Of a stretch of 64,000 nucleotides of DNA, positions 34,127-61,997 are shown piece by piece. Source of the DNA: an uncultured Ignavibacteria bacterium (lineage in GTDB: Bacteria > Zixibacteria > MSB-5A5 > CAIYYT01). The stretch covers positions 88,203 to 152,202 of the forward strand of contig CAZTYE010000007.1 of the NCBI GenBank assembly GCA_964617645.1. The letters run 5' to 3'. The position numbers and the translations under genes were made by a program. The stretch's first letter is position 1; every line of letters begins with the position of its first letter. The notes below the pieces were generated by a model, which was given only the letters and a program-made list of their open reading frames with translations, was not told where the DNA came from and did not search any database.

Positions 34127-34170
34127 TCGCAAAGCCGGTTGCATTTGCGACTTCCCGTCCACCGAATCAG

Positions 34171-34196: not shown

Positions 34197-34232
34197 TAAA
34201 CTCAGAGACAGGACTGAGGAGCATTGGCATTA

Positions 34233-34442
34233 ATGCGTGAAACGAGAGCTACCACCAAGTGCAAATATACGGACGTTTGTTACTTGGCCGAAGCGCTTCA
34301 GTGCTACGGTTACAAGTTGGACTGCATACTATACACCGAGACCAACGGTGTGCCGGTTACAGAAGAAGAATTTCATGCGGCCATCAATCAACTGATCGAT
34401 AAAGCGAAAGCCGAAGACTTCTACAAAGCCTTCAGTAAGTAG
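34233..34442 (+). CDS. small hypothetical protein (69 aa, 4 Cys), low GC relative to neighbours
   Basis: MRETRATTKCKYTDVCYLAEALQCYGYKLDCILYTETNGVPVTEEEFHAAINQLIDKAKAEDFYKAFSK. ORF GC ~47% against ~60% locally. Flanked by sigma-28-like and sigma-54-like elements. Confidence 0.35.
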   Translation: MRETRATTKCKYTDVCYLAEALQCYGYKLDCILYTETNGVPVTEEEFHAAINQLIDKAKAEDFYKAFSK

Positions 34443-41426: not shown

Positions 41427-41765
41427 TTGCTCATTCTAACAAGGAAGTTAGGCGAGTCCATCACGATCGGCGATAACATCAAAGTTACGGTGTTGGGCAT
41501 TTACGGCCGCCAGGTGCGACTCGGCATCGACGCGCCGCTGAAGGTTGTCGTACACCGCGAAGAAGTGTACGTCAAGATTCAGCAGGAGAATCGCAAAGCT
41601 GCGCAGGCGGCCAAGAAGGACCTGATGTCGGTCGTGACGATGCTCCGCAACAAGTTCAAGGGCGAGATCAAGGACTCCGGCGAACAAAAATCGGAGCTTG
41701 AATATCGCGACAACAAAGGCAAGAAGGACCGCAACGACGATCGCAGACCGGAATCAAAACGATAA
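41427..41765 (+). CDS. csrA: carbon storage regulator CsrA with ~50-aa charged C-terminal extension
   Basis: [25 protein letters not shown]…GIDAP core, TTG start with RBS GGAGGG. 112 aa against a typical 60-75. Confidence 0.85.
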
Positions 41766-43853: not shown

Positions 43854-44333
43854 ATGGAACTGCAAACGCGTCAATTTGGAATGATTCAGGTCGCCGAAGG
43901 CGAAATCCTCTCCGTCCCACGGGGGCTGCTCGGCTTCGAGGGCTTTGAGCGCTTCGTCTTGATCGACTCGCCCGACTGCCGGCCGTTCCGCTGGTTGCAG
44001 TCGGTCGACGCGCCCGACCTGTCCTTCGTAGTCGTCAATCCGACCGTGTTCTTTCCCGAATACCGGGTGACGGTACATGCCAAGGAAGTTGCCGATATCA
44101 ATGTTGCGCAGCCACAGGACGTAGAAATCTTCGTCATCGTCACCGTGCCGGAACACTGGGAAGAGATGTCGGCCAACCTGCAAGGGCCCATCTTGATAAA
44201 TCGGCGCAACAATAAGGTCAAGCAATTAGTGCTGACCGACTCGAGCTACGGCGTGCAGCATTCGATTGCCCGCCAGTTGGAACGCACTCGCGTCGAGGTC
44301 GCATCGGGAAACGCGATCGTTACAATTTCGTAA
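43854..44333 (+). CDS. fliW: flagellar assembly factor FliW (CsrA antagonist)
   Basis: MELQTRQFGMIQVAEGEILSVPRGLLGFEGFERFVLIDSPD…PFRWLQSVD signature; 159 aa. Confidence 0.85.
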   Translation: MELQTRQFGMIQVAEGEILSVPRGLLGFEGFERFVLIDSPDCRPFRWLQSVDAPDLSFVVVNPTVFFPEYRVTVHAKEVADINVAQPQDVEIFVIVTVPEHWEEMSANLQGPILINRRNNKVKQLVLTDSSYGVQHSIARQLERTRVEVASGNAIVTIS

Positions 44334-45959: not shown

Positions 45960-48571
45960 GCAAGCGAACTAAGGGCCGCACGGCGAAGAAGAATAGAGCG
46001 ACCGAAGCAGTCACCGACCCCGCAGAATTGACCGAGTTGTACAGAGCGGGAAACTATCGCAAGTGCTGGGATTGTGGTCGCGGTCAGCAGCTTCCTGACT
46101 CCGCCGGCGATGCCATTCTCGCAGTTGTCTGGAGCGGCTTCAGGCTCGGCTGCCTGGAACCGGCCGCCGGATTGCTCAGTCGATCGAGGGAACAGGTGCC
46201 GAGCTTTCGCCGCGCAGTTGCGTCTGCCGTCCTCGCGCATGGCGCAGGTGAATTCACCGAGTGCGTGGAGATCGCGCACGCAGTGCTTACGAATGATCAG
46301 GATCTAATCTCCGGCCTGACAGCCTCCGGACACCAATTCGAAGAAACCCGTGAATTCGTCACCGCAGTCGCGAACTCACTTCTACAGTTGCGGAAGCCGC
46401 AGGCGGCGGAAGAACTATTGCGCCGGGCCATATCGATCCGTGACAATGTCGCTGAATTCTACATTGAGCTTTACCAAATCGCGCGCCGTGAGGCCGATCA
46501 AGAGAAGCAACGGCGGATCTTAACTGATGGCATGGTGCGGGCCGCTCATAAGGACGACTTGGCAAAATTCGCCGCAAACTTGCTTGGTGAGCAACGCATC
46601 TCGGTGTGCATGATCGTCAAGAATGAGGAGAAGCTGCTCCCGCGAGCGCTGGCCAGCATTCACGAATTGGCCTACGAGATTATCGTGGTCGACACCGGCT
46701 CGACGGATCTGACGGTTGAGATCGCCGAGAGTTTCGGAGCCAAGGTCTTTCATCATGAATGGCAGAACGATTTTTCGCTCCACCGCAACCAGTCGTTAGC
46801 TTATGCAACCGGCGAGTGGGTGATGATTCTCGACGCGGACGAAGAACTTGTCGGCCAAGACGTCGGTAGACTACGGCAGGCGCTCTTAATCCCGAATCTC
46901 AACATTCTCTCGATCTCCGTGCACAACCAGCACCTGCGTACCGGTGAGACTACATCGTTTTTGCCGTCAGTCCGTTTGTGGCGCCGCAAGTTGAATCTCC
47001 ACTACGAAGGCATCGTCCACAACGAGCTGCGATTGCCGCCGACAGAACCGATCCTGCGCGTTGATGTCCGGCTAAACCACTTCGGTTACGGCCTTGACTG
47101 GGAGCAAATGAAGACGAAGATCGCGCGCAGTCGGGCGCTGCTGGAACAGCAGCTTGCGGACAACCCGAACCATGCATTCGCCAACTTCAATTTGGCACAA
47201 CTGCTGCGTGGCGAGTCGCAGAATCCATCTGCGGACACCTGCCGCAGGATAATCGAGCATGCCGGTCGGACCGTGAAATTCACCGATCCAGACAATCGGG
47301 ATCAGCGTCACCTGCACTTGATGGCGCTGGATCAGATGACGACCGCTTACTTCTATCTGAAAGATTATGAAAATGCCGAATCGTGCGCAAAACGCGCACT
47401 CGCGATCGACCCCGGTTATCTTGATCCGCTGTTCGCATTGGGGCATATCTATGCCGCACAACGCAACTTTGACGAGGCCATTCCCGCTTACCGGAATTTC
47501 ATTACCGCCGCCAACGCCTACGATCCCGGAAAAGAAACGACGAATTTTATACTACAGCACAGTCAGGATCAAGCATCCGCACACTTTGCGCTCGGGCTGA
47601 TTTACGAAGAGAAGCAAGATTGGGCCGCCGCCGAGTCGCATTTCCTGCAAGCATCCAAACTTCGCGAGCACCATCAGGACGTCGACACGCACCTGGCGTA
47701 CATCGCCTACCGGCGGGGCGAGTATGATACGGCGCAGAAGTATGCCGAACGACAGCTTAGGTCAACCGAGACTGATGTCCCGGCTCGATGGCTGTTGGCG
47801 AAGATTGCGCGCGCACGCGGCCTTTCGGCTGACGCACTTCGGCAATGTGAGATTATTCTGCAACATCATGCCGACCACAATCAAGCGCAGCAACTCAAGA
47901 TCGAGCTTCTCCGCGAACTGGGAAAGGAATCCGCCGCTGCGGCTGCGATTGATCAGGCGCTAAGAGCTGATCCGGAGAATCCGACGGTGCTCAATCAGCA
48001 AGCGGAAATGCTCATCGCGAGCGGCCGGCACGAGCAGGCGTTGGCAGTGTACAGCCGCCTTGTAAAGCACAACGCTCAAGACGCCGAGACGCACAACAAT
48101 ATCGGCAATTGCTACTACCGCCTCTGCGATTACGCCGCGGCGGCTCGCGCTTATGAACTCGCGCTTTCGATTCGGCCGCAGCTTGTGCCGGCGCTGAGAA
48201 ACCTCGGCCTGACGTATTGTAAGCTCGATGATCCGGCGGCGGCGATTGCGCATCTCAGTCGCTACCTCGACTACGCCAAGGGTGATCTTGAGATCGAGTA
48301 CCTGGTCGCGCGCTTGCTCTTCGATCTCAATCGCTACAGCGAGGCGATTCACTTTGTTGAGCGCGGCCTGCAGAAGCATCCGCGTTCAGCGGAGTTGGTC
48401 GCGTTTCTTGCCGACTGTTACAACCGTTTGGGACACTTCGATAGCGCGCGGCTCGGATACCGGCAGGCGCTGCAGCTCGATCCGAGCATGACGCAAGTGC
48501 GCGACATTCTCTCGCAACTCGAAACACAGTTGGCGCAGACGTCGAAAATCCCGGTGGTAAAGGAGCGCTAA
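45956..48571 (+). CDS. TPR-GT2-TPR glycosyltransferase (candidate flagellin O-glycosyltransferase, FgtA-like architecture)
   Basis: Central GT-A/GT2 domain (CMIVKNEEKLLPRALASIHELAYEIIVVDTGSTD…ILDADEEL) flanked by many TPR repeats. ATGA start/stop overlap with the upstream gene. Confidence 0.75.
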   Translation: MSKRTKGRTAKKNRATEAVTDPAELTELYRAGNYRKCWDCGRGQQLPDSAGDAILAVVWSGFRLGCLEPAAGLLSRSREQVPSFRRAVASAVLAHGAGEFTECVEIAHAVLTNDQDLISGLTASGHQFEETREFVTAVANSLLQLRKPQAAEELLRRAISIRDNVAEFYIELYQIARREADQEKQRRILTDGMVRAAHKDDLAKFAANLLGEQRISVCMIVKNEEKLLPRALASIHELAYEIIVVDTGSTDLTVEIAESFGAKVFHHEWQNDFSLHRNQSLAYATGEWVMILDADEELVGQDVGRLRQALLIPNLNILSISVHNQHLRTGETTSFLPSVRLWRRKLNLHYEGIVHNELRLPPTEPILRVDVRLNHFGYGLDWEQMKTKIARSRALLEQQLADNPNHAFANFNLAQLLRGESQNPSADTCRRIIEHAGRTVKFTDPDNRDQRHLHLMALDQMTTAYFYLKDYENAESCAKRALAIDPGYLDPLFALGHIYAAQRNFDEAIPAYRNFITAANAYDPGKETTNFILQHSQDQASAHFALGLIYEEKQDWAAAESHFLQASKLREHHQDVDTHLAYIAYRRGEYDTAQKYAERQLRSTETDVPARWLLAKIARARGLSADALRQCEIILQHHADHNQAQQLKIELLRELGKESAAAAAIDQALRADPENPTVLNQQAEMLIASGRHEQALAVYSRLVKHNAQDAETHNNIGNCYYRLCDYAAAARAYELALSIRPQLVPALRNLGLTYCKLDDPAAAIAHLSRYLDYAKGDLEIEYLVARLLFDLNRYSEAIHFVERGLQKHPRSAELVAFLADCYNRLGHFDSARLGYRQALQLDPSMTQVRDILSQLETQLAQTSKIPVVKER

Positions 48572-49659
48572 TGATGCGAGTTGAATTGTGCGCGTTCGAT
48601 GCGACCAAGGCGAATGATCTACTGATGCGAATCCCGCACCATGTGCAGAACACGGCGGCATGGTTCGATTTCGTCCACGAGTTCAGTGGCGAAGAAGAAG
48701 TCTCGATCGGCTTTGCAATTGGCGGAGAATTCCGAGGCTTTGTGCGCGCGCTACGATTCAAGAATCTCATTCAGTCATTGCCGTATCCGGCAAGCTATTC
48801 GGGACCGGTGTTTGATCCGGAGGTCGGAGAAGGAGAGCGAATCGCTTGCCTCAATCTGCTCATCGAACACCTCGCCACACGCTGCGACGTTTTTTCAATC
48901 ACCGGTTCGCCGCTCATGCGCCAGGATTTCACCGGTATAACAGAATCGGTGCATGTGTTGCGTAACCGCATCGACGTAATCGACCTCAGCGCGCCGCCGC
49001 TCGCCGGCACAACATCCAAATTTCGCAACAATCTCAAGCGGAACTTGCGCAAAGCGGAAGCCGCCGGTGTCCGCGGCAAGCTACAGCACGATACCGAGCT
49101 GCTCGGCCGCTGGTATCAGGTTTACGAACGGCGTATGCGGCAGTTGAACGCGCCGACCCTGCCGCTGCGCTATTTCGAATTGATGTTCCGTCACCTGCAG
49201 CCGCACGGCCAAGTTGCCCTGCTCAGCTCGCTCAGCGGAAAAGAATATTTTGGGGGGACGATTGTCGTCTACAATCGACATTGCGCCGACTATTACCTCA
49301 GCGTCTATGACCGCGAATACGACGATCTACAGGCATCAACTGCCGGCCTCCACTTCTTAATTCACTGGCTGAAATCGCAGAGCGTCACGCTGTTCAACCT
49401 GCAGGCGTCGCCATCAACTCAAGGCGAGTTGGCGCACTTCAAACAATCGTGGGGCGCGCAGAGTCGTGAGCATGTCTACACTTCAGCAGTCCTAAATTCC
49501 GCGACAAACTTGTTGCAGACAATGCCGAAAGAAATTCGACAAAGTTATCCGTTTCACTTTGTCGTGCCATTCTCTGCTCTGGTGAACTGCCCGTCAGCGG
49601 GGCCGGTGGAGTTCGCAACGGACGATTCGCAGTGCGGCAAGGAGGTTGCAACGCCATGA
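48571..49659 (+). CDS. FemAB-like / GNAT-fold acyltransferase family protein
   Basis: 362 aa. Architecture and motifs resemble the FemAB-type (Acetyltransf_6-like) family often found in glycan loci. Weak assignment. Confidence 0.45.
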   Translation: MMRVELCAFDATKANDLLMRIPHHVQNTAAWFDFVHEFSGEEEVSIGFAIGGEFRGFVRALRFKNLIQSLPYPASYSGPVFDPEVGEGERIACLNLLIEHLATRCDVFSITGSPLMRQDFTGITESVHVLRNRIDVIDLSAPPLAGTTSKFRNNLKRNLRKAEAAGVRGKLQHDTELLGRWYQVYERRMRQLNAPTLPLRYFELMFRHLQPHGQVALLSSLSGKEYFGGTIVVYNRHCADYYLSVYDREYDDLQASTAGLHFLIHWLKSQSVTLFNLQASPSTQGELAHFKQSWGAQSREHVYTSAVLNSATNLLQTMPKEIRQSYPFHFVVPFSALVNCPSAGPVEFATDDSQCGKEVATP

Positions 49660-50678
49660 TTTCAGGAAAGACGATTTTCATTACCGGCGGCGCCGGGTTC
49701 ATTGGCTCGGCGCTGGCAGAACGGCTGGTCGAGGATAATCGCATAATCATTTATGATAATTTCCGGCGCAATTCGCTTGTCGACAAGTCTTGGCTGTCGT
49801 CGCACCGCAACATCGAACTGGTCGCTGGCGACATTCGCGATCGCGGCGCGCTCACGCATGCCATCGCCGGCGCAAACATCGTGATTCACGCGGCGGCGAT
49901 TGCCGGTGTCGACTCGGTGCTTCGCGACCCGGTGGGGACAATGGAAGTCAATGTCATCGGCACCTACAATGTGTTCATGACGTGCCTCGAATCCTGCGGG
50001 CGGCTGGAGCGTGTAATCGACTTTTCAACCAGCGAAGTATTTGGCGCTTACGCCTACAAAGTCACCGAAGAGAACCTCAAGCCGGCGCTCACCGTTGGTG
50101 AGGCACGCTGGTCTTATGCCGTCAGCAAACTGACCGGCGAGTTCTTCGCCAACAGTTTTTTCAGCAAACACGGGCTGCCGATTGTCTGCGTGCGGCCGTT
50201 CAATATTTATGGACCGGGCCAAGTCGGCGAAGGCGCCATTCACCATTTCGTCGTGAATGCCATTCAAAATCGCGACCTGACAATTCATGCCGACGGCAGC
50301 CAAATTCGCGCCTGGTGTTACATCGACGATATCCTCGACGCGCTGGTGGAAATTCTCTCCAACGATCGCGCCATCGGTCACGCATTCAACATCGGCAATC
50401 CGAAAAGCACGGTCACGATTTATCATCTCGCCCGCGAAGTCATCCGCGTGGCACAGTCGCGATCGGGATTGGTGTTCAAGGAGATGACCTCGCCGGACGT
50501 CGAAGTGCGCATTCCGGACATCCACAAGGCCCGCGAAATACTGGGATTTGAGCCGTTAGTCGAGTTAGAGGATGGTCTCAAGCGGACAATCGACTGGTAT
50601 CGACAGAAGCTCAACGGCGGTCTTGAACCGCGTCGCCGCGCACTGAAAATCAAAGAGGGAATTGGCCATGCCGTCTAA
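49656..50678 (+). CDS. NAD-dependent sugar epimerase/dehydratase (extended SDR)
   Basis: Rossmann motif FITGGAGFIGSALAERL and catalytic YxxxK (YAVSK). Confidence 0.85.
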   Translation: MISGKTIFITGGAGFIGSALAERLVEDNRIIIYDNFRRNSLVDKSWLSSHRNIELVAGDIRDRGALTHAIAGANIVIHAAAIAGVDSVLRDPVGTMEVNVIGTYNVFMTCLESCGRLERVIDFSTSEVFGAYAYKVTEENLKPALTVGEARWSYAVSKLTGEFFANSFFSKHGLPIVCVRPFNIYGPGQVGEGAIHHFVVNAIQNRDLTIHADGSQIRAWCYIDDILDALVEILSNDRAIGHAFNIGNPKSTVTIYHLAREVIRVAQSRSGLVFKEMTSPDVEVRIPDIHKAREILGFEPLVELEDGLKRTIDWYRQKLNGGLEPRRRALKIKEGIGHAV

Positions 50679-51705
50679 AATCACACTTGCCGCAAAACCG
50701 TGGGAACGCTTCTATGGATTTGCCAACGACAACGACAAGATTTTCCCCAACATGGTGCATCTGGATCTGATTAATATCTGCAACTTTCGATGTATCCACT
50801 GTCCTCAGCACGATATCAAGAAGTTTGTGCCCGACTACCAGCAAAACCAACTGGATTGGGATGTCTTCACCCGCGTCATCGACGAAGTCGCCGAACATGG
50901 CGCGACACTGCGCATTACCTGCGACGGTGAGCCATTCCTCTACAAGCACATCGTTAAAGCGATTCACTACATCAAGGATCGTGGCGTCAAAATCGCTACG
51001 ATCGTGACTAACGGTAGCGCGCTGAGCAAGCCAATTGCCGAGGCGATCCTGCGGCCTTCCGCGACGAAACTCGTCATCGACTTCAGCCTCGACAGCCTGT
51101 ACAAGTCGACTTACGAGAAAATCCGCCTGCAGGGGAACTTCGTTGAAGTGTACAGCAATGTGCTGTTCCTGCTGAAAAATCGATCGCTGAATCCTAATCT
51201 GCGCATCATCGTAAACATGATTGATCAAGACACTTTGGAAGCAGGCGAGCTGGAATCATTTGAGAAATTCTGGCGCCCGATCGCGGACGACGTGGTTGTG
51301 CGCACGTATCTCACGGTCAAGGGTATGGTCAACTCTTCGACTCTGCGGATGGATGATGACCAATATCGCTGGCCCTGCTCCTTGCTTTGGAATCGCATTT
51401 CGGTGTCGTCGCACGGTCGGCCGCGATTTTGCGTCGCCGATTGGCGTGAACAGTCGGCTTTTCGCGACTTCGACTTGCTCAAGATGTCAATCAAGGAAAT
51501 CTGGCAATCGGATCGCTACGATAAGTTGCGAAAGATCCATCTTGACAGGGAATTCTCGAAAATCAGGATTTGCGAACACTGCACCGATTGGTTCGGTCTG
51601 AAGTGGGATTATGACTACCGCACGTTGATTGACAAGCTCTTCGCCCCGAAGGAGCGCATCTCTGAAGCGTCCCGGATCTCAGTGGAGGCTCCGGTCAATG
51701 TCTGA
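50668..51705 (+). CDS. radical SAM enzyme with C-terminal auxiliary Cys cluster (SPASM/twitch-like)
   Basis: CNFRCIHCPQ (CxxxCxxC). C-terminal Cys-rich block CSLLWNRISVSSHGRPRFCVADW…ICEHCTDW. Confidence 0.75.
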   Translation: MPSKITLAAKPWERFYGFANDNDKIFPNMVHLDLINICNFRCIHCPQHDIKKFVPDYQQNQLDWDVFTRVIDEVAEHGATLRITCDGEPFLYKHIVKAIHYIKDRGVKIATIVTNGSALSKPIAEAILRPSATKLVIDFSLDSLYKSTYEKIRLQGNFVEVYSNVLFLLKNRSLNPNLRIIVNMIDQDTLEAGELESFEKFWRPIADDVVVRTYLTVKGMVNSSTLRMDDDQYRWPCSLLWNRISVSSHGRPRFCVADWREQSAFRDFDLLKMSIKEIWQSDRYDKLRKIHLDREFSKIRICEHCTDWFGLKWDYDYRTLIDKLFAPKERISEASRISVEAPVNV

Positions 51706-54118
51706 GGCTGTGACGATCCATGCCTTCGGTGAGCAAAACGCGGTTGCGGCATGGCTGAATCCATACTGCGACCTGCAATCCTCTACAGCCAAAGTTGTTG
51801 TCCGCCACGAAGGAGAATTCCAACTCGCCCGCTCGCAACAATTGCTCTCGAACGATAGCTGCCTGTGGATCGATCAACTCGACGCCGCGGTGGTAAGATT
51901 GACGCAAGTCGGAGTGCAGCATCGGGCGAGAACGATTCTGCGGGTTGAGTCATCGGATTTACTCGATAATGACCTATCGCAAATGCGCTGGGAGTTCTTC
52001 GACGCCGTCGTGCCGTCGGACAAGCTGGCGGAGGCCCTGCTCTTTGATGTCTGCGATCGTATCGAATCGTTCACGCGCGTTGTGCAACTGCCGATGGCAC
52101 TTGCCCTACCACATCTGGCCGTGGCCGACAAACGGCCGACCAAGACAATTGCCTACCGCGGGGCCTTGCGCCGTGACAATCGTTCGGAAATGCTGCTGCA
52201 ATTGCTCGCGGCGCTCGCGCGAGTCGATGCTCAATTCCGCTTGGTAATCGTTGGTGAATTCGAAAGCCGGAGTTGGCAAGCACATTTCGAGACGATGATT
52301 CAGGCGATGGGCTTGGCCGAACAGATCCGTTTCGAAGTGGCGCCACCGGACTGGATCGCATGGTATCGCGATAAGGATGCCATTATGCAACTGACGACAG
52401 ATTCAGTAAGCAGGCAGACGACACTTCTCGCTATGGCTTGCGGAGTCCGCCCAGTCGTTTACCGGCACTTTGGCGCCGAAAATCACTACATGCCCGACAT
52501 GATATTCTCGTCACTCGATGACGCCGCGCAGTTGATTCGGCACAGCCCGTGGGAACCGTTACGCTGGCGCAATCAGATCAGCGAACAACAAGATCCCGAG
52601 CAGAACTACGCCCGCTTCCGATCAATCGTGGAATTCGCGTCGAGCGAGGCGAGTCCCATGGTAAGCATACTGCTCCCTACTTTCAACCGGGCCAAAATGC
52701 TGGAGGGTACGTTGGCGCGGCTCGGCCGGCAGACATATCGCAACATTGAGATCGTGGCGGTTGATGACTGCTCCGAAGACGAAACACCGGAGGTACTGGC
52801 ACGGGCCGCCCGAGCCGATTCCCGTGTAGTCACGAGCAGAAACCCAGTGAATGAAGGCAATGCGCGAGCGATGGCGACTGCCGCGCGGATGGCTGCCGGC
52901 GAGTTCGTACTGGTATTCTCCGACGATGACGATTTGGCCGAAGACGCCGTCGAGAAGCTGGTCGAGTGCGTTCGCCGCAAACAACCGGATCTGATTTACT
53001 CCAATCTCGAAATCATCGACCAGAATGGCAATTCGCAAGGAGTGTGGCAATATCGCAATTATTACGACACGCGCGACCTTCTTCAGCGACTTGTCGCCAA
53101 CGACGGCAACTTGATCCCGGAAGTGTTTTTCTGCCGGCGCGAACTGTACGCGGAACTATATGAGGAAACGTACTCCCGGCGATTTCTCAACACCTATTAC
53201 CTGCCGCATCTTCGCCGACTGCGGATGCTTCATCTGCCGCTGCCGCTATATCGCTACCGCGTCCACGGCGGGAGCACGTTCAGTTCAGCCCGAGGATTGC
53301 TTGATCGCAGCAAGTCAACACAAAATTACATCAATGCGGCGTTGTTCATGTACTCGCCGCTGAACATTTTCGGCGGCAACTCGCAGAGCACGGTTGTCGA
53401 GCAATACGCTGCGGCATGCTATCAAGCGGCCGAACTGCTCATCGCGTTGGGAGACCGGCATCGTGAAGGCCGGAATTATGCCGGAGCCGAATTCACCGCG
53501 ACAGATCGATTATGGTGGGTGTACTACTTTAATGCCTTTCATTGGCTCATGCAGGCGAAGTTGCACAGCGACGATCATCGGATTCACGATGGGCTTCAGG
53601 CAAAGATCCTTGCCGAGTGCGACCCGGGTGCATTCAATCCCGAGCGGGATACGGCCTTGCCGAGTTTCTATCGAGAACTGCCGTGGTTCGCGAACAAGGG
53701 GTTCAATAATCTCGGTGATTTTGTCGCGCTCGACATGCTGACCATGGGCGCCAAGCCACCTCTGGATCAAAGCAGCTATACACTTTGGCGTGGTGGCAAG
53801 GCACATCTGCGCGCCGAGAACCGCATCGCCACTGACATCGACCAAGCAATCACCGAGTTGGAATCAAGGCCGATTACGGCAGTAAACGTCTGCGACGCAA
53901 AATATCTTGCGCCACTACTCAGTTACTTGATTGAGAACGGTCGACTGGCTGTGAACGTAATGAATCTTGCCGGGATTACGATTCCACAGCTTGAGACATA
54001 TCGCAACCTCTTCACTCCGGAAATTCCGATAGTATCGTTCGCCGACTATCTTCGCTGGATCACCAATGTAACGACGAGATGTAACTATGCGCGTTCCGTT
54101 GTCGAAGCCGCTGTTTGA
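51698..54118 (+). CDS. multi-domain glycosyltransferase (GT-B-like N-terminal region + GT2 domain + ~350-aa unknown C-terminal domain)
   Basis: GT2 motif SILLPTFNRAKMLEGTLARLGRQTYRNIEIVAVDDCSED…FSDDDD. N-terminal region resembles a glycos_transf_1 C-terminus. 807 aa. Confidence 0.65.
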   Translation: MSEAVTIHAFGEQNAVAAWLNPYCDLQSSTAKVVVRHEGEFQLARSQQLLSNDSCLWIDQLDAAVVRLTQVGVQHRARTILRVESSDLLDNDLSQMRWEFFDAVVPSDKLAEALLFDVCDRIESFTRVVQLPMALALPHLAVADKRPTKTIAYRGALRRDNRSEMLLQLLAALARVDAQFRLVIVGEFESRSWQAHFETMIQAMGLAEQIRFEVAPPDWIAWYRDKDAIMQLTTDSVSRQTTLLAMACGVRPVVYRHFGAENHYMPDMIFSSLDDAAQLIRHSPWEPLRWRNQISEQQDPEQNYARFRSIVEFASSEASPMVSILLPTFNRAKMLEGTLARLGRQTYRNIEIVAVDDCSEDETPEVLARAARADSRVVTSRNPVNEGNARAMATAARMAAGEFVLVFSDDDDLAEDAVEKLVECVRRKQPDLIYSNLEIIDQNGNSQGVWQYRNYYDTRDLLQRLVANDGNLIPEVFFCRRELYAELYEETYSRRFLNTYYLPHLRRLRMLHLPLPLYRYRVHGGSTFSSARGLLDRSKSTQNYINAALFMYSPLNIFGGNSQSTVVEQYAAACYQAAELLIALGDRHREGRNYAGAEFTATDRLWWVYYFNAFHWLMQAKLHSDDHRIHDGLQAKILAECDPGAFNPERDTALPSFYRELPWFANKGFNNLGDFVALDMLTMGAKPPLDQSSYTLWRGGKAHLRAENRIATDIDQAITELESRPITAVNVCDAKYLAPLLSYLIENGRLAVNVMNLAGITIPQLETYRNLFTPEIPIVSFADYLRWITNVTTRCNYARSVVEAAV

Positions 54119-55280
54119 CGGCGCTGAGCAGCGAGCAGTTTGCGAAGTTCTCGACTCGGGCTGGGTTATGCAGGGAAGTCGAGTTGCTGAACTGGAGCGC
54201 CGCTTTGCTGCATTTGTGGGGACACCGTGGGCAATCGCGACATCCTCATGCACAACGGCGCTGCATCTTGCAATGCGCGCTATCGGCGTCAGCCCGGGCG
54301 ATGAAGTGATCGTTCCCTCGTTGACCTGGGTAGCGACGGCCGCTGCCGTCGAGGAGTGCGGTGCGGAGACCGTCTTTGCCGATAGCCGGTTGGACACCTA
54401 CAACATGGACATCGAACACGCGCGTTCGCTCATCACCAGTCGTACGCGCGCCATTGTTGCCGTTAGCCTTTTCGGGCTTGCGGCAGATCTACCAGTCTTA
54501 ACTAAGTTGTGCGATGAGCATGGAATTATCTTGATCGAGGACGCAGCTTGTTCTTTGGGCGCGACTTGTGGCGGTCGACAAAGCGGCGGCTTTGGTCGCG
54601 TGGCTTGTTTCTCTCTGCATCCACGAAAGTCAATCACTACCGGTGAGGGAGGCGTTATCGTTGGCGCTGACGCGCGCGACGAAAGATATCTTCGACGAGC
54701 GCGCTCTCACGGCATCATTCTTCCCAGCGAAGGCGAATCGCTACCGCCCCATGAGATGGGAGATGTCGAACTCTGCGGCTACAATTATCGCTTGACGGAT
54801 CTACAGGCTTCACTCGGATTGGCGCAATTCGACAAACTAAGCGACATCCTTCGCCGCCGCCGCGAAATCGCCAGCATCTATACACGTGCCTTCTCAGATT
54901 TGGAGGGAATCAACACGCCGTTCGAGCCGGCAAGCTGCCGTCACAGTTATCAATCGTATGTCTTGCTTGTGACGGCGCCAACCGGCGACGATGCTGAATC
55001 CGAGCGCTTGCGTAACGCGATGATGATCCAACTCGAACGACGCGGAGTTTCAACTCGCCCCGGAACGCATGCTGTACATAGTCTGTCCTACTTTCGCGAC
55101 AAGTACAAACTGCATCGCAGGTCGCTCCCGAATGCTTATCGGGCCATGACGCGGACAATCGCGCTGCCGCTCTATCCTTCGATGACGCAAAGTGAAACAT
55201 GTTACGTCATAGAATCGGTGAGAGCGGTGTACGAGGAGATATTTACCTCGGTGAATAGCGGAACGTGTGGCGGCGATTGA
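54087..55280 (+). CDS. DegT/DnrJ/EryC1/StrS family PLP-dependent sugar aminotransferase
   Basis: N-terminus LSKPLFDGAEQRAVCEVLDSGW. PLP-Lys region SFHPRKSITTGEGG. Confidence 0.85.
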   Translation: MRVPLSKPLFDGAEQRAVCEVLDSGWVMQGSRVAELERRFAAFVGTPWAIATSSCTTALHLAMRAIGVSPGDEVIVPSLTWVATAAAVEECGAETVFADSRLDTYNMDIEHARSLITSRTRAIVAVSLFGLAADLPVLTKLCDEHGIILIEDAACSLGATCGGRQSGGFGRVACFSLHPRKSITTGEGGVIVGADARDERYLRRARSHGIILPSEGESLPPHEMGDVELCGYNYRLTDLQASLGLAQFDKLSDILRRRREIASIYTRAFSDLEGINTPFEPASCRHSYQSYVLLVTAPTGDDAESERLRNAMMIQLERRGVSTRPGTHAVHSLSYFRDKYKLHRRSLPNAYRAMTRTIALPLYPSMTQSETCYVIESVRAVYEEIFTSVNSGTCGGD

Positions 55281-55459
55281 AGTTGTTCAAGTTCTGAACA
55301 GCGCCTCGCGAGCATGAACCAACCTTGTCGCGAAGCACCACGGCAGAGCCGATCGCACCGGGACAGTGGGAATGAGCAATCAGAGACGTTAGAGTTCAAG
55401 TTATCGCGGTTCGCCGCCGAATTACTCTTATGTGACTGACAATTTCGCGCTTGCGCCCC

Positions 55460-55486
55460 TTTAGGGGCGTTCACTTGTGCCGATAA
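55460..55486 (+). promoter_or_regulatory. putative sigma-28 promoter for fliC (weak -35 TTTAGGGG, N11, perfect -10 GCCGATAA)
   Basis: GCCGATAA at 55479-55486. Predicted ~200-nt 5'UTR containing several GGA motifs, including AGGAGGA at the RBS. Confidence 0.4.
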
Positions 55487-55699
55487 TCTGAGCGTAAGAA
55501 AAAGTGAATCGATAGGGTTCATACGGTAACAGAAAAGAGGTCTACGCATCCAAACGGACCCCACTAACCGGGGACCACAAGCGGTTAGAAGGTCGAGTTG
55601 CTCCGGCCTTGGCAAACATCGGACGTCGCTGAATGCAGCGAGCAGTAGTAGAAATGTCGGAAACGGAATCCGACAGGGAAATTCAAGGAGGATGGTTAA

Positions 55700-57892
55700 A
55701 TGTCACTGCGCATTAACCACAACATAGCTGCACTGGATGCTCAGCGTAACTTGGCCATGACCACGCGCTCGATCAGCGGCGTCATGGAGAAGCTGTCGTC
55801 CGGCTACCGCATTAACCGCGCCGCCGATGATCCGGCCGGCCTGGTTATTTCCGAACAGTTCCGGGCTCAGATCGCCGGTCTCAATCGCGCGATCCAGAAT
55901 TCGGAAGGTTCGATCAACATGATCCAGACCGCGGAAGGTTCACTCAACGAAATCAACTCGCTGTTGGTCTCGATGCGCGAACTGGCCATCCACGCGGCCA
56001 ACGAAGGCTTCAACGACGCCAATCAGTTGGCTGCCGACCAGGCCGAAATCGAAAACGCGATCAAGACGATCGATCGTATTGCCGCGAACACGCAGTTCGG
56101 CACGAAGAAGCTGCTGGACGGCACCAAGGACAATATCGCGACAATCACGACCGCCAATTCGTCCGGTCTCACCGTGCTCAAGAGCTTCCTGTCTTCGGGA
56201 AGCCACTCGATCACCGCGACCAAGACCGCCGATTCGACTGCGACGATCAACACCACGTCGCTGGGCATTTCGCTCAATTCGACCGGCTCGCCGAGCAATC
56301 TCGAAGAGAAGATTCACAATCTCAACGTATTGCAGGCTTCAGCCGGCGCCGAGAAGACCTCGAGCGCAATGGCGATTAGCGACGCCTTCGGCAACGGCAT
56401 GACCATTGCCGCCACCGCTCAGTACGCCACCGTGTTCAGCGCCGCTTCGGTGCTGTCCGCCGCAACGGCGTCTCATGCCGGCACGTACACCGTCGTCCTG
56501 AACTATCAGGAAAACAACGAAGCCGTCTCCGGCGATCAGACCTTGCAGGTCGCGATTGCCGCGACGGACACTCGTGCCGCCATCATCAACAAGTGGAATC
56601 AGGCGATTGCCAACAATTCGTCGTTGGCCGGCAAGATCACTGTTGCCACGACGACTTCTGGCACCGGCCAGGGCATTCAATTCCGCGCCGTCAACAAGGG
56701 CGCTCAGTATTCGTTGAAGCTGACGTCGGCGACGACAACGGCGTCTTCGAATTACATGAGCATGGGCGCCAGCCGCTCCAGCCGTGGCGTGAGTTTGAAC
56801 GTGTTGAACTTTACGGTTACCACCGCGAAGAACAACAACACGACCGCAGCCGTGACCGTAGCGGCGTCGACCTATAGCTCGATGTCCACATTGGCGACCG
56901 CCATCCAGACCGGCTTAGCTTCCGCGTTTGGCACGGTTTCCACAGGCGCCGGCCAGACTTCGACGACCAACGACGTCGATGTTTCGGTTTCCGGCACCAG
57001 CCAGTTGAAGTTCTTCACCTATGATGAAGGCTCCGACTACAAGATCAAGCACAATTCCACGGGCACCGAATCCGAGCGTCTGTTCAACGCCCTCGGCCTG
57101 AGCGCCGACACGTTGTCGATCTCGGGTGCTGACGCGCTCGTGTCGTTTGACGGCTACACTTCGGCCGTGACGTCGGTCAAGTACGGCTCGACTTCAAATG
57201 TCACGCTGTACAACAAGGCCGCCGGCAGCGCCGGCCGTGGTTCGATTGCGTTGACGGTCGGAAAGGCGTCCAACGGTCTCAACGTTGGCAACCTGCTGCT
57301 TGACGTAAAGGCCGCCAAGTTTGACGTTCGTCTCGATGCCGGACCGGCTACCTCCGTGACGGCGGGAAAGGATGCGACCGTTTATAATTCGGATCGCACC
57401 CAGTCCTTGAACATTCGTTACGCACTGACCTCCAACGGTGGTTCGGAATCGATTACGAACACGGATCAGTCGCTGGTGTTCCAGATCGGCGGCAACGTCG
57501 GTCAGACCGCGGCGATCGGCCTGCGCAACATGACAACTTCCGCGTTGGGCAAGAACCTCGCTGGAAACTCATTTAGCAGTCTGGCCTCGATCAACGTCGA
57601 AACCGTCCTTGGCGCTCAGGACGCCCAGGCCGTGATTGACGCTGCGATCGACGAAGTCTCCAACGCTCGCGGTACGCTGGGTTCGTTCCAGAAGAACACT
57701 CTGGAATCCAATCTGCGCAACTTGCGAGTCGCTGCACAGAACCTCACGGCTTCCGAGTCCGGCATTCGTGACACCGATATGGCGTCCGCGATGTCCGATT
57801 TCGTGAAGAACCAGATCCTGCTTCAGGCTGGTACCGCCATGCTTGCGCAAGGCAACCAGTTGCCGCAGGTCGTGCTGTCTCTGTTCAGCTAA
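55700..57892 (+). CDS. fliC: flagellin (730 aa; conserved D0/D1 termini with very large Ser/Thr/Ala-rich central variable region)
   Basis: N-terminus MSLRINHNIAALDAQRNLAMTTRSISGVMEKLSSGYRINRAADDPAG. C-terminus …DFVKNQILLQAGTAMLAQGNQLPQVVLSLFS. Confidence 0.9.
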   Translation: MSLRINHNIAALDAQRNLAMTTRSISGVMEKLSSGYRINRAADDPAGLVISEQFRAQIAGLNRAIQNSEGSINMIQTAEGSLNEINSLLVSMRELAIHAANEGFNDANQLAADQAEIENAIKTIDRIAANTQFGTKKLLDGTKDNIATITTANSSGLTVLKSFLSSGSHSITATKTADSTATINTTSLGISLNSTGSPSNLEEKIHNLNVLQASAGAEKTSSAMAISDAFGNGMTIAATAQYATVFSAASVLSAATASHAGTYTVVLNYQENNEAVSGDQTLQVAIAATDTRAAIINKWNQAIANNSSLAGKITVATTTSGTGQGIQFRAVNKGAQYSLKLTSATTTASSNYMSMGASRSSRGVSLNVLNFTVTTAKNNNTTAAVTVAASTYSSMSTLATAIQTGLASAFGTVSTGAGQTSTTNDVDVSVSGTSQLKFFTYDEGSDYKIKHNSTGTESERLFNALGLSADTLSISGADALVSFDGYTSAVTSVKYGSTSNVTLYNKAAGSAGRGSIALTVGKASNGLNVGNLLLDVKAAKFDVRLDAGPATSVTAGKDATVYNSDRTQSLNIRYALTSNGGSESITNTDQSLVFQIGGNVGQTAAIGLRNMTTSALGKNLAGNSFSSLASINVETVLGAQDAQAVIDAAIDEVSNARGTLGSFQKNTLESNLRNLRVAAQNLTASESGIRDTDMASAMSDFVKNQILLQAGTAMLAQGNQLPQVVLSLFS

Positions 57893-57907
57893 TTCGCTGA
57901 TTATTTT

Positions 57908-57941
57908 CCCGGGTGGAAGGCCTAACCGCCTTCCACGCGGG
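57908..57941 (+). terminator. strong GC hairpin (putative terminator/attenuator) between fliC and flaG
   Basis: CCCGGGTGGAAGGC-ctaacc-GCCTTCCACGCGGG. No clean U-tract follows. Confidence 0.4.
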
Positions 57942-57958
57942 TATTCGCTGAGGTGAGA

Positions 57959-58351
57959 ATGAACACGATTTCGACGACGAGCGACGCGCGTATCAAAGAC
58001 GCGGTCGCGGAGTTAGTGCGCACCGCGTCTAATGCGGCGCGCTCTAATGGAGCCTCTCAGGCCTCGAAATCTCCTCAGACGGAAGTGGTGTTGGCGCTCA
58101 ATCCATCGGACGCGCTCGACCAAAAACGCAGCGATCAGTTAGAGAAGTTGATCGCTGAAATCAACCGAGAATATCAAGCGCGCAACATAGCTCTACAATT
58201 TCGCGTCGACAAATCTGCCGGCGCATTGGTAATCTCCGTCCTCGATGCCGCCAATGACAAGCTGATTCGACAAATTCCGCCCGACGCGATATTAGCTATT
58301 AAGCGCCACATGCGCTCACTATTGGGAGACATTTTCGACGCCGAGGCTTAG
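57959..58351 (+). CDS. flaG: flagellar protein FlaG
   Basis: ~130 aa. C-terminal LQFRVDKSAGALVISVLDAANDKLIRQIPPDAILAIKRHM matches the FlaG family. Position between fliC and fliD. Confidence 0.7.
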   Translation: MNTISTTSDARIKDAVAELVRTASNAARSNGASQASKSPQTEVVLALNPSDALDQKRSDQLEKLIAEINREYQARNIALQFRVDKSAGALVISVLDAANDKLIRQIPPDAILAIKRHMRSLLGDIFDAEA

Positions 58352-58411
58352 GATGTATGCGGTTGGGCCGCGATCGCAGCCCAACCGACTTCGGTGGTAA
58401 GGAGCAAGACT

Positions 58412-60763
58412 ATGGCTGGAATTCAAGGATCAATCCAGGGACTCAATTCCAACCTTGACACGCAGGCGATCATCGATGCGCTGTTGACCTTCGACAAAAA
58501 GAACATCACACTGCTGGAGTACGATCAAGTAGTCCGCACGAACCAGATCGCCACTTATCAGTCGATCAATACCCGCCTCTTGGCGTTTCAAACGCAGGCT
58601 GCCGCTATAGCGCGTGCGTCGACCTTCACTGCCACCAAACTCACCGTATCCGACGAAGACGTGCTGTCGGCAGTTGCGGCCGAAGATGCCGCGCTGGGCA
58701 ACTATTCGCTCAGTGTCAAGGCGCTGGCGCAGAATCATCAGATTGCCTCGCAAGGATACTCCGAGCAGGAAGCGGCCGCGTTGGGTACCGGCACGATTGC
58801 TATCACCGTCGGTGATGGCTCGACGAAAACCATCTCCATCGACTCCGCCAATGGATCGCTCGAAGGAATTCGCCGGGCGATCAACAGCGCCAAGATCGGA
58901 GTTACGGCGTCTGTCATCAACGACGGCTCAAGTTCCAATTCTTATCGTCTGATGTTGTCCTCCGACAAGACCGGAGAGAAGAACAAGATCACTGTTGCAG
59001 CGAACCTCAACGGTTCGAAATCCCTGAATTTTACCTCGGCAGCGTTTGACCAAGTCGAGAAGCTGTCGTTCTCCGGCGCGGCGACGTCGACGCCGACCCT
59101 CGGTCCGACCGCCGCGTACACGGGCAACAAAAACAAGACATACACACTCACCGTCGGCGGAACCGGTTCGCAAACCGTCGGTAGCGGCGACATCACGATC
59201 AACTGGACCGACGGTACCAATTCCGGAGCGATCCTCGTTAGCTCGGCCGACACCGAAGTCGAACTCACCGGCTCCGGCTCCGACGGGCTGCGGCTCAAAT
59301 TCGCCGCCGGACTGCTCGTCGCCGGCGATACGTTTCGCGTCCAGACCTTCGCGCCGTTGCTGCAGAAACCGCAGGATGCCGAAATCGCAATCGGATCCGA
59401 ACAGGGCGGTGGATCGCCGATTAATGTCACCAGCACGACCAATGTCTTCAAGGACATCATCGCCGGCGTAACGATTAATGCTAAGCAACTTTCAGGCTCA
59501 CAGCCCGTCATGATCTCGCTCGAGCGCGATCTGGAGAAAATCGAAGGCTCGATCGACGAGTTCATTACGAAGTTCAACGACGTCGTCGAGAGCATTGACG
59601 AGCAATTCAAGTTCGACCCCAAAAATACGGAAAAGACCGGCATTCTCTTCGGTGACAGCACACTGCTCATGATGCAGAATAGCCTGCGCTCAAGAGTCTC
59701 CTCGCGAATTCCGGGTCTTGCGTCGAGTTACAATATGCTTGCGGCTATCGGCATTCGGCTCGGCACATCAGGCAAGCTCGCGGTAGTAGATCGCAGCAAG
59801 CTGCAGACCGCGATTCGTGACAATGTGCAGGACGTTCAAAAGCTCTTCGCGGCATCGGGGGATTCGTCGAACGCCAAGATTGAATTTTTGTCGATGACCG
59901 CAAAGACCAAGGTGTCCGATGACGGCTACGCGGTCAACATTACGCAGGCAGCTAACAAAGGATATTTACGCACCGCCGCCATATCCGATCCGACTCTTAC
60001 GCCGATCACGATCGACTCGTCAAACCGTAACGTGCAATTTCGCGTGGACGGCGTCATTTCCGACAACATCACACTCACGGAAAAAACCTATTCGAGTTGG
60101 ACAGAATTGGTAGACGAACTGCAGCAGAAAGTCAATGCCGATGCCAAAATCGGCAAACTCGGCGCCGTTGTGTCGCACACCGACAACGGGGACAACGGTT
60201 ACTTGACGCTTTCTTCGGGATCGTACGGGAAGACATCAAAATTTGAAATCGTTTCCAGCACCGGAAACTCGGCCTATGCCGTGCTCGGACTCGCCACCGG
60301 CCAGGTGTTTGAGGGCAGTGACGTTGAGGGCACCATCAATGGCGAGGCCGCTACCGGCGCCGGCCAAATCCTGACCGGCAAGGAAGGCAATAAGAACACC
60401 GAAGGTCTGAAGATCAAGGTCACGCTGTCGGCCGCGGATCTGAACTCGCAAAACGAAGCCACGATTTCGGTTTTCCGCGGGATTGGCGCCCTGATGCAGG
60501 ATCACGTCGACTCGCTCGCCAAGAGTGTCGACGGCACGTTAGCGCGCCGCACGAAGGCGCTAGAGTCTCAGATCGACGACATCAAGTCGCGGGTCGAAGA
60601 TCTCAACCAGCGGATGGAGTTGAAGCGCCAGCGGCTGCTCGAGCGATTCCTCGCCATGGAGGAGACGCTGGGTCAGCTAAACTCGCAATCGTCGTATCTC
60701 TCCGCCCAGTTGAATCAGATCGCGGCAAACTTCAGTCAAATCAGCGCCAACGCGAAAGGCTAA
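58412..60763 (+). CDS. fliD: flagellar filament capping protein FliD
   Basis: N-terminal cap helix GIQGSIQGLNSNLDTQAIIDALL, C-terminal …LSAQLNQIAANFSQIS. RBS GGTAAGGAG precedes ATG 58412. Confidence 0.8.
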   Translation: MAGIQGSIQGLNSNLDTQAIIDALLTFDKKNITLLEYDQVVRTNQIATYQSINTRLLAFQTQAAAIARASTFTATKLTVSDEDVLSAVAAEDAALGNYSLSVKALAQNHQIASQGYSEQEAAALGTGTIAITVGDGSTKTISIDSANGSLEGIRRAINSAKIGVTASVINDGSSSNSYRLMLSSDKTGEKNKITVAANLNGSKSLNFTSAAFDQVEKLSFSGAATSTPTLGPTAAYTGNKNKTYTLTVGGTGSQTVGSGDITINWTDGTNSGAILVSSADTEVELTGSGSDGLRLKFAAGLLVAGDTFRVQTFAPLLQKPQDAEIAIGSEQGGGSPINVTSTTNVFKDIIAGVTINAKQLSGSQPVMISLERDLEKIEGSIDEFITKFNDVVESIDEQFKFDPKNTEKTGILFGDSTLLMMQNSLRSRVSSRIPGLASSYNMLAAIGIRLGTSGKLAVVDRSKLQTAIRDNVQDVQKLFAASGDSSNAKIEFLSMTAKTKVSDDGYAVNITQAANKGYLRTAAISDPTLTPITIDSSNRNVQFRVDGVISDNITLTEKTYSSWTELVDELQQKVNADAKIGKLGAVVSHTDNGDNGYLTLSSGSYGKTSKFEIVSSTGNSAYAVLGLATGQVFEGSDVEGTINGEAATGAGQILTGKEGNKNTEGLKIKVTLSAADLNSQNEATISVFRGIGALMQDHVDSLAKSVDGTLARRTKALESQIDDIKSRVEDLNQRMELKRQRLLERFLAMEETLGQLNSQSSYLSAQLNQIAANFSQISANAKG

Positions 60764-60769
60764 GATCAC

Positions 60770-61204
60770 ATGAATCGACAGCTCACGCACTATCAGAAGG
60801 CACAAGTCGACGGTTCAAGTCAGCGTGATTTGATAGTGATGTGCTACAAGGGCGGCATCAAGTATCTTCTCGATGGTCGGGAGAAGCTGAATAACGCCGA
60901 CGTTGCCGGTTTCTCCGAATGTATCGAGCGCACGCACCGCATTGTCTTTCATCTGTACACGACGCTCGACATGAATCAGGGCGGCGAGATTGCCCAGCGC
61001 CTCGCTGACTTGTACGTCTACATGATAAACCAGCTCTACCTTTTGAATGCGACAAAGAACGATGAATTGTTTGACGGATTGATTCGCGTCCTGACCACCC
61101 TCAAGGAAGGCTGGGAGCGGATCGATAACCATGGTATAGACGGGGCACCACTGGGGAGTCGCGCGTCGGAAACCAACGCGCAAGTTGTATCTGTAAAGAT
61201 CTGA
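60770..61204 (+). CDS. fliS: flagellin-specific export chaperone FliS
   Basis: YQKAQVDGSSQRDLIVMCYKGGIKYL…LADLYVYMINQL signature. Confidence 0.85.
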   Translation: MNRQLTHYQKAQVDGSSQRDLIVMCYKGGIKYLLDGREKLNNADVAGFSECIERTHRIVFHLYTTLDMNQGGEIAQRLADLYVYMINQLYLLNATKNDELFDGLIRVLTTLKEGWERIDNHGIDGAPLGSRASETNAQVVSVKI

Positions 61205-61679: not shown

Positions 61680-61997
61680 ATGACCGTAAATCGTGTAGGA
61701 CCGGGTGGCTTGCCGCCGCTCGGAGACGATATGGGCAAGAGAAAATCTCAGGCTGTCAAGACGCGGCAGGATGCCGGCCAAAATCCGCCGGTAACAGCGG
61801 CTGCCGACAGCGCCGGCGCGCCGACAAAGCCCAAGCCGGCGACGGATGAGTACGTCTCGACGCGATCAAACAATGAAGCGCCGTTGCGCTCGGACAAACT
61901 CGCCCATGCGCGCCGCATGATCGAGAACGGTTCGTACAATGATCCCAAAGTAATCGCCGAGATTATTGATCGGCTGATGCATGCCTTGAAAAGCTAA
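61680..61997 (+). CDS. flgM: anti-sigma-28 factor FlgM
   Basis: ~105 aa, disordered N-terminal half. C-terminal KLAHARRMIENGSYNDPKVIAEIIDRLM matches the FlgM C-terminal helices. Confidence 0.65.
   Translation: MTVNRVGPGGLPPLGDDMGKRKSQAVKTRQDAGQNPPVTAAADSAGAPTKPKPATDEYVSTRSNNEAPLRSDKLAHARRMIENGSYNDPKVIAEIIDRLMHALKS

Follow-up and report, generated by a model that had tools for sequence, protein, structure and literature searches.

The flagellin gene hag of Bacillus subtilis is transcribed from a promoter of the sigma-28 (SigD) type, and its leader carries two CsrA sites, one in the loop of an upstream hairpin and the other placed over the Shine-Dalgarno (SD) sequence (Yakhnin 2007; Mukherjee 2011; reviewed in PMC7652899). 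The C-terminal extension of B. subtilis CsrA is bound by FliW, and fliW, csrA and the flagellin gene occupy one late flagellar region. The flaA gene of Campylobacter jejuni has a sigma-28 promoter too, FliW antagonises CsrA there, and its leader structure, backed by compensatory changes, displays a pair of ANGGA loops at a distance of about 21 nt, of which the second covers the ribosome-binding site (PMC4894983). High-affinity CsrA sites present GGA in short hairpin hexaloops (PMC7652899, PMC4894983), and two sites lying about 18-21 nt apart are bridged by one dimer, the optimum being about 18 nt and the distance in flaA 21 nt (PMC4894983). The flaA transcript has been proposed to serve in addition as a CsrA sponge, that is, as a dual-function mRNA (PMC4894983). 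Here we describe a flagellin gene and its leader in a 64,000-nt stretch of contig CAZTYE010000007.1 (hereafter the window), from an uncultured bacterium filed under Ignavibacteria, whose nearest genomes are all metagenome-assembled genomes (MAGs) of Candidatus Zixibacteria, some of them carrying the same label. The locus shares with B. subtilis a putative sigma-28-type promoter, the placing of putative CsrA sites in an upstream hairpin loop and over the SD, a CsrA with an extension of the FliW-binding type, and the grouping of fliW, csrA and flagellin gene in one late flagellar region. As judged from sequence comparison over about 50 Zixibacteria loci, the gene is likely to be a late (class III-type) gene under the control of sigma-28 and of CsrA/FliW feedback.

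Candidate CsrA sites in the flagellin leader

The flagellin mRNA is predicted to begin with a 5' leader of about 206 nt (55494-55699, forward strand), the start being deduced from the position of the -10 element. The leader contains eight GGA triplets, as compared with 3.1 expected from their frequency in the window (Poisson P ~0.014), and five of the eight sit within its final 45 nt. Over 51 leaders the GGA positions peak at -12/-18, -24, -36/-42 and -84/-90, with a broad peak from -144 to -174, and three modules recur in the final 100 nt of 39 leaders: a motif at about -85, a hairpin at about -38 and the SD.

The hairpin is the most telling of these features. It was absent from an earlier reading of this DNA (the original prediction), which had noticed several leader GGAs, including AGGAGGA at the SD, and had likened the arrangement to that of hag. 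In the window it reads UGUCGGA-AACGGAA-UCCGACA (55655-55675, forward strand), with seven base pairs and GGA in the loop, and constitutes a BS1-like putative CsrA site. Among the relatives the loop A(A/C)GGA(A/U) is fixed while the stem sequence varies freely (GUCGGA/UCCGAC, GGGGU/ACCCC, GAGGU/ACCUC, CACCGGAA/UUCCGGUG and others), and a hairpin with four or more base pairs and a loop GGA at -38 to -48 was found in 39 of 48 distinct loci, versus 14.5% of shuffles. Compensatory changes affect each of the five stem pairs over 73 distinct sequences. On alignment A5, which was fitted to the model structure and hence inflates pairing counts, 87.6% of cells are paired versus 64.4% after shuffling; the covariation score of 0.399, versus 0.117 in shuffles, is reached by none of 500 of them, and slid controls give at most 0.112.

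The SD itself, UCAAGGAGGA (55683-55692, forward strand), bears two overlapping GGAs and forms a BS2-like putative site that is near-invariant across the phylum: apart from CACGGAGGA in 2 of 39 sequences it is constantly CAAGGAGGA, GGAGGA being invariant and the flanking CAA nearly so. The AGGAGGA recognised originally lies at 55686-55692, 7 nt from the ATG. Measured from the loop GGA at 55665, the SD GGAs (AAGGAGGA, 55685-55692) lie 22 and 25 nt away, to be compared with the ~21 nt of flaA. An extra GGA conserved in the window's clade, AGGGAAA (55675-55681, forward strand), corresponds to the peak in the -24 bin. Further upstream, AACAUCGGACGUC (55615-55627, forward strand) is a putative distal CsrA site; the corresponding phylum-wide motif, ACAUnGGAaGUG, written as ACAUnGGAaGUGaC for the 39 leaders, occurs at about -85 in nearly all loci and resembles the consensus RUACARGGAUGU obtained by in-vitro ligand selection (SELEX; PMC7652899).

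A covariance model (R1) built from the three modules was searched against the window and 78 loci (1.34 Mb, both strands). It returned 51 matches at E < 1e-10, each ending at a flagellin ATG, with a single match in the window (55607-55702, 62.5 bits). The covariation of the hairpin and the restriction of the hairpin and GGA-bearing SD to flagellin genes argue for the hag-like arrangement of CsrA sites first proposed. R1 also matched loci of Brevinematales (Spirochaetota; L059-L075) with E = 2e-8 to 0.025, about 90 nt before flagellin genes, where hairpins of the CCGCAAGGACGCGG type are followed by AUCAAGGAGGA. Since the model matches these Spirochaetota leaders, the hairpin-plus-SD operator appears to be shared between phyla.

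Promoter, distal leader and alternative readings

The -10 element of a sigma-28-type promoter, GCCGATAA, is found at 55479-55486 (forward strand), an exact match 214 nt ahead of the ATG, where the original prediction had placed a perfect -10 about 215 nt upstream; all coordinates given there were correct on re-check. It is paired with a -35-like element, TTTAG (55460-55464, forward strand), which aligns with TAAAG or TTAAG of the relatives and departs from the phylum consensus, TWAAG-N14-TGCCGATWA (spacers of N14-16 allowed), by one or two mismatches. A scan of 54 loci for TAAA (at most one mismatch), N14-16 and GCCGAT (at most one mismatch) located the motif at -260 to -170 in 34 of them, where it is 19 times as dense as in the rest of the 420 nt upstream, and in an alignment of the 11 closest loci the block TAAAGCAAnAAnCnnTTGnnGCCGATAA is prominent amid poorly conserved flanks. 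No sigma-70-type promoter was found by a consensus scan of 54800-58500, and no sigma-54 promoter in the spacer, where the best match has three mismatches and is without GG/GC; a loose sigma-54 scan over the whole window gave no enrichment versus shuffles. Because the sigma-28-type motif is conserved and the spacer holds no sigma-70 or sigma-54 site, a long leader of 170-235 nt appears to be a phylum-wide trait. Searching the window loosely for sigma-28 promoters, with one mismatch allowed per element, proved too unspecific to be of use: it gave 45 hits, mostly intragenic, versus about 22 in shuffles, and failed to pick up the flagellin promoter. Over the -35 lies a GC-rich hairpin, GCGCCCC-UUUA-GGGGCGU (55453-55470, forward strand, z = -2.6), absent from the relatives, which possibly terminates the sugar operon upstream and may explain the degenerate -35 of the window. 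The positional conservation of the motif, together with compensatory helices at -141 to -90, supports transcription from a sigma-28-type promoter with a long leader, as originally suggested.

RNA-level constraint on the leader extends upstream to at least 55559. The helices S1 (CCCC/GGGG) and P1 (CUAACCG/CGGUUAG), at 55559-55588 (forward strand), are kept with differing sequences in 19 clade members, the sample on which the distal covariation rests; the loop of S1 is the 5' strand of P1, so that the two would form an H-type pseudoknot or else fold as alternatives. The adjoining P2 hairpin, AAGGUCG/CGGCCUU with the conserved loop AGUUGCUC (55589-55610, forward strand), has 100% of its cells paired and shows the compensatory change GGGGUC/GACCCC in two sequences (L048 and L086). 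On a structure-naive alignment of the window's clade, pairing in P1 and P2 reaches 99.3% and includes five compensatory pairs; both helices were found again, with more compensatory variants, in another eight metagenome sequences. These compensatory changes suggest that the distal leader is transcribed and under constraint at the RNA level. The folding energy of the whole leader is not exceptional, so the evidence for structure comes from covariation and not from energy. A pseudoknot pairing the P2 loop (UUGCUC) with a downstream GAGCA was set aside as well: both segments are invariant, and covariation gives no test. Distant Zixibacteria differ from the window's clade in their distal leaders, many of which carry an SD-like AGGAGG without a start codon about 50 nt past the predicted start; they also bear a further GGA hairpin. 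An upstream open reading frame (uORF) behind this AGGAGG was rejected, a suitably placed start codon occurring in 5 of 54 leaders only and in none for the window. Extra CsrA docking, mRNA stabilisation or a second regulatory input are all possibilities for the distal parts.

S1/P1, pseudoknot-like, with P2 (55559-55610) and perhaps ACAUnGGA, might form a second, independent cis-regulatory RNA that senses a ligand, temperature, another protein or a small RNA, or that sets mRNA half-life, CsrA acting only at the proximal hairpin and the SD; at those two sites the proposal is compatible with CsrA/FliW control. The maintenance of S1, P1 and P2 by compensatory changes in 19 sequences, the high conservation of a segment of about 145 nt inside the clade and the length of leaders across the phylum would fit it, as would the lack of a consistent GGA in S1/P1, where L001, for example, has GGGGGCGA. 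Nevertheless the element is restricted to one clade, distant Zixibacteria being different distally; no conserved unpaired pocket or ligand-like core was identified; the whole-leader folding energy is ordinary (z = -0.5); and Rfam 15 gave no match in 55250-55760, either at the gathering threshold or at E up to 10 (in a scan of the whole window it reported only a tRNA at 5768-5840). We regard such a second RNA as possible, although rather unlikely. Slightly more speculative is the idea that the leader, with three to five conserved GGAs over about 200 nt, binds at least two CsrA dimers and acts as a CsrA sponge (a dual-function mRNA), S1/P1/P2 being a new structured motif that gates the sites or controls stability through a second signal.

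Control by sigma-28 and CsrA/FliW has a number of points to contend with. In the 64-kb window 15 copies of the octamer GCCGATA[AT] are present, which gives about a 5% chance of finding one in the 419-nt spacer and makes the octamer weak promoter evidence by itself; the window -35 is degenerate, TTTAG instead of TAAAG. No fliA was found among the scanned ORFs (open reading frames) of the window, and a FlgM-like ORF (61680-61997) is weak, with a Pfam FlgM match of E = 0.017, under the cut-off. As regards the CsrA sites, ACA and GGA are one base further apart in the distal motif than in the SELEX consensus, the window hairpin has the heptaloop AACGGAA where a hexaloop is common in relatives, an invariant strong SD would be equally expected for any very highly expressed gene, and the pairing counts for the hairpin are inflated, as stated above.

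Part of these points would be accommodated if the mRNA started near the ATG, its short leader including only the proximal hairpin and the SD, and GCCGATAA at about -220 were non-functional or drove a separate short transcript. The poor -35, the frequency of the octamer and the shortness of known CsrA-controlled flagellin leaders (45 nt in C. jejuni flaA; PMC4894983) all lean this way, but the covarying helices and the -85 motif lie far upstream of such a start, and no promoter motif is conserved nearer the ATG, nor is any sigma-70- or sigma-54-like site. Neither a terminator-like element nor a conserved uORF intervenes between promoter and ORF, and we hold a short leader to be very improbable. 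Least credible of all is that the GGA-rich leader reflects only selection for translation efficiency or mRNA stability (through a strong SD, a 5' SD-like stabiliser and protective hairpins), csrA and fliW serving other targets: flagellin is among the most abundant proteins, and the AGGAGG without start codon of many relatives resembles the SD-like mRNA stabilisers described in Gram-positive bacteria, but the loop A(A/C)GGA(A/U) is fixed while its stem varies, the same hairpin-plus-SD design precedes Spirochaetota flagellin genes and matches experimentally proven CsrA sites, and in every locus csrA and fliW form part of the late flagellar cluster.

Circuit genes, flagellin and glycosylation genes

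The csrA gene (41427-41765, forward strand) encodes 112 amino acids, with a Pfam CsrA match of 2e-24 over residues 1-53 and a conserved core including VHREEV, followed by a FliW-type C-terminal extension and a charged tail. Its best relative in the PDB is 5DMB_D, the FliW-bound Geobacillus CsrA, aligned over residues 2-75; as it runs through residue 75, the alignment covers the extension. Extension and tail are common to 18 other Zixibacteria CsrAs of 103-119 amino acids, in which the extension is followed by a conserved Y(K/R) motif and then by a stretch rich in Lys, Arg, Asp and Glu. The fliW gene (43854-44333, forward strand; Pfam FliW 4.4e-39) encodes a protein that matches PDB entries 5DMB_A and 2AJ7, and fliS, for the flagellin export chaperone, lies at 60770-61204 (forward strand; Pfam FliS 3e-28). 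The presence of the FliW-type extension, fliW and fliS favours the original view that the partner-switch circuit is intact; csrA and fliW, which it had placed 12 kb upstream, are both there, at 14.3 and 11.4 kb, and that distance was thus approximate. The order upstream of the flagellin gene is flgF-flgG-flgA-flgH-flgI-flgJ-flgN-flgK-csrA-flgL-fliW, and downstream follow flaG (57953-58351), fliD (58394-60763), fliS, a FlgN/FliT-like gene and an HDOD gene. Across the phylum the order is flgN-flgK-csrA-flgL-fliW-(TPR-GT)-fliC-(flaG)-fliD-fliS, where TPR-GT stands for a glycosyltransferase (GT) with tetratricopeptide repeats (TPR); both csrA and fliW belong to the late flagellar cluster throughout, and in every Zixibacteria locus examined (L009-L057) csrA lies between flgK and flgL, not beside fliW. 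The C-terminal segment IENGSYNDPKVIAEIIDRL of a 105-aa ORF at 61680-61997 (forward strand) is similar to FlgM, the anti-sigma-28 factor. A further sigma-28-like promoter, CTAAGT-N15-GCCGATAA, is located in a spacer at 34163-34199 (forward strand), in front of a Cys-containing 72-aa ORF without Pfam match (34224-34442) and, from 34599 on, of the flgF-flgG-...-csrA-flgL-fliW string. From its position ahead of this string, sigma-28 control may extend to csrA and fliW.

The presence and conservation of these elements and genes were computed; from them we infer CsrA binding, the transcription start, glycosylation and a feedback loop that would operate as follows. FliA/sigma-28 polymerase would initiate at TTTAG-N14-GCCGATAA, some 206 nt ahead of the ATG, and the long leader would fold into a series of hairpins. 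A CsrA dimer would bridge the loop GGA (55655-55675) and the SD GGA pair (55683-55692), 22-25 nt apart, and block 30S binding, while the third site, ACAUCGGACGU (55615-55627), 44 nt further upstream, would probably raise the affinity or hold a second dimer. When flagellin accumulates in the cytoplasm, FliW would be held by it and CsrA would be free to repress. Completion of the hook-basal body and export of flagellin (with FliS) would set FliW free; it would then bind the C-terminal extension of CsrA, and translation would resume. The outer domains of flagellin would probably be O-glycosylated before export by the TPR-glycosyltransferases encoded between fliW and fliC, and the GC-rich 3' hairpin would end or stabilise the transcript.

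The flagellar filament gene (55700-57892, forward strand) encodes a flagellin of 730 amino acids with the conserved D0/D1 ends that had been recognised at first: Flagellin_N (PF00669) covers residues 5-143 (1.3e-34, 119.7 bits) and Flagellin_C (PF00700) residues 645-729 (1e-20, 74.3 bits), both above the curated cut-offs, and the NCBIfam flagellin Hag model matches at 1.2e-64, under its equivalog cut-off. The centre (residues 144-644) is dominated by Ser, Thr, Ala, Asn and Gly, also as initially described, with 58% of these residues versus 43% in the termini and 27% of Ser plus Thr versus 14%. In the AlphaFold2 model residues ~150-590 fold as several beta-rich domains with a predicted local distance difference test score of 80-95, and the best structural matches of this centre by Foldseek are FliD D2-D3 domains (E = 3e-6 to 5e-4). 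The central 450 amino acids are hence modelled as conserved, confidently predicted beta domains and not as a low-complexity linker. The full architecture is common to more than 120 protein clusters; among 40 aligned members the length ranges from 719 to 744 amino acids, distant members share about 54% identity in the centre, as against about 83% in the N-terminal helical region, and of the 127 Ser/Thr positions of the centre 46 are kept as Ser or Thr. Outer domains of flagellins are usually hypervariable, whereas those of Zixibacteria are unusually conserved in length and sequence over the whole phylum (P0001-P0120). The closest folds, FliD D2-D3 and other flagellin outer domains, differ from the window flagellin in that the latter carries several beta domains in tandem (~145-590). 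An enzymatic or otherwise unusual central domain was discarded as a candidate, the centre having no Pfam domain and Foldseek yielding FliD-like beta domains only; a marginal flagellinolysin match is restricted to the C-terminal helical region. In one close relative (L048, 10001-12176) the flagellin frame ends at codon 485, by pseudogene formation or assembly error. Flagellins 87% and 66% identical to that of the window, and within the Zixibacteria family, occur under the labels Burkholderiales (L041) and Thorarchaeota (P0068), probably through mis-binning in the source MAGs.

Seven genes separate fliW from the flagellin gene. The first (44385-45959, forward strand) encodes a TPR protein (residues 24-153) with a C-terminal GT-B glycosyltransferase domain (Glycos_transf_1, 344-456), an architecture like that of FlmG, and adjoins fliW in many loci. 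The second (45956-48571, forward strand) combines a GT-A domain (GT2, SunS-like peptide glycosyltransferase) with C-terminal TPRs and is present upstream of fliC in nearly all Zixibacteria loci, with no query gene between them outside the window's clade. In almost all loci at least one of these two TPR-glycosyltransferases is encoded between fliW and fliC. The remaining sugar-modification genes (48571-55280, forward strand) are confined to the window's clade and encode a FemAB-like GNAT acyltransferase, a 4,6-dehydratase/epimerase, a radical SAM-SPASM protein, a GT1/GT2 protein and a PseC/LegC-like aminotransferase; the PseC/LegC-like and LegB-like enzymes match below cut-offs, and neither Maf (PF01973) nor a nonulosonic acid (Pse/Leg) synthase was matched by Pfam or NCBIfam among the island proteins. 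Because an FlmG-like TPR-glycosyltransferase is conserved between fliW and fliC phylum-wide, flagellin glycosylation is plausible, a reasonable inference from gene content to which the clade adds sugar-modifying genes; in this respect the original prediction agrees with the comparison, the heavy extent that it foresaw being more conjectural.

The hairpins that had been taken to delimit the transcript differ in quality. After the fliC stop, a GC-rich stem-loop without U-tract (57908-57941, forward strand) folds with -28.8 kcal/mol including flanks (z = -4.5; matched by 0 of 200 shuffles), and 29 of 30 loci have after the stop a GC-rich hairpin of 10-15 bp, differing in sequence and often without U-tract (mean z = -4.9). 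These hairpins favour the 3' boundary first proposed, with a terminator there, or else a part in stabilising the 3' end. After the aminotransferase stop, the hairpin announced at 55283-55299 does exist, as a weak AT-rich stem of 8 bp (55282-55302, forward strand; -9 kcal/mol, z = -1.8), but it is unremarkable, being equalled by 13 of 200 shuffles, and with no U-tract it makes no convincing terminator.

Also present in the window is a perfect sigma-54 consensus, TGGCACATCAATTGCT, on the reverse strand at 28593-28608, in the spacer between an M14 peptidase gene and xseA, facing the 3' end of the peptidase gene with no obvious ORF downstream. Two other observations are unrelated to flagellin: a protein of 460 amino acids that carries an AHH nuclease toxin domain at its C-terminal end (1805-3187), and an archease-RtcB RNA ligase gene pair (7964-9864).

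Comparison with known systems

The FliW-CsrA-flagellin circuit is itself known, and its probable occurrence in Zixibacteria, a phylum for which no such circuit had been described, is largely ordinary. The new points are modest: the long leader, the third conserved GGA site and the clade-specific pseudoknot-like element at 55559-55610. The locus is of interest in that comparative evidence, beyond gene presence, extends to an uncultured phylum a circuit proposed to be ancestral to flagellated bacteria, with the same hairpin-plus-SD operator in Zixibacteria and Spirochaetota flagellin leaders. Moreover, the stems covary and the loops are fixed in about 50 leaders, which constitute a natural mutagenesis set for the grammar of CsrA sites and for multi-site leaders. 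Less expected are the phylum-wide long leader with a third CsrA-like site and the pairing of a conserved 450-aa flagellin outer-domain block with dedicated TPR-glycosyltransferases. None of these findings overturns current understanding.

The closest parallel to the glycosylation genes is FlmG, the flagellin O-glycosyltransferase of Caulobacter, which, compared by architecture, has the same N-terminal TPR and C-terminal GT-B as the product of 44385-45959 (PMC7591256). Both genes stand next to flagellar genes. The window differs from that system in its island, where no pseudaminic acid synthase or Maf was found, and in a second enzyme, the SunS-like GT-A with C-terminal TPRs. As multi-site leaders, those of glgC and cstA in Escherichia coli are comparable, with up to four CsrA sites over a long leader, one of them on the SD, although these are not flagellin genes and their antagonists are the small RNAs CsrB/C, not FliW (PMC7652899). 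In relation to B. subtilis, the CsrA of the window, at 112 amino acids, bears an extra charged tail, and 11 kb of glycosylation genes lie between fliW and the flagellin gene. Whereas fliW and csrA are adjacent in B. subtilis, in the window csrA stands between flgK and flgL, with fliW after flgL. The hag leader is markedly shorter than the ~206 nt of the window and has two GGA sites, in contrast to at least three conserved ones here. Likewise, the flaA leader of C. jejuni, with its 45 nt, probably accommodates one dimer (PMC4894983), whereas those of Zixibacteria, with 170-235 nt, add to the shared operator an extra site at -85 and further structure.

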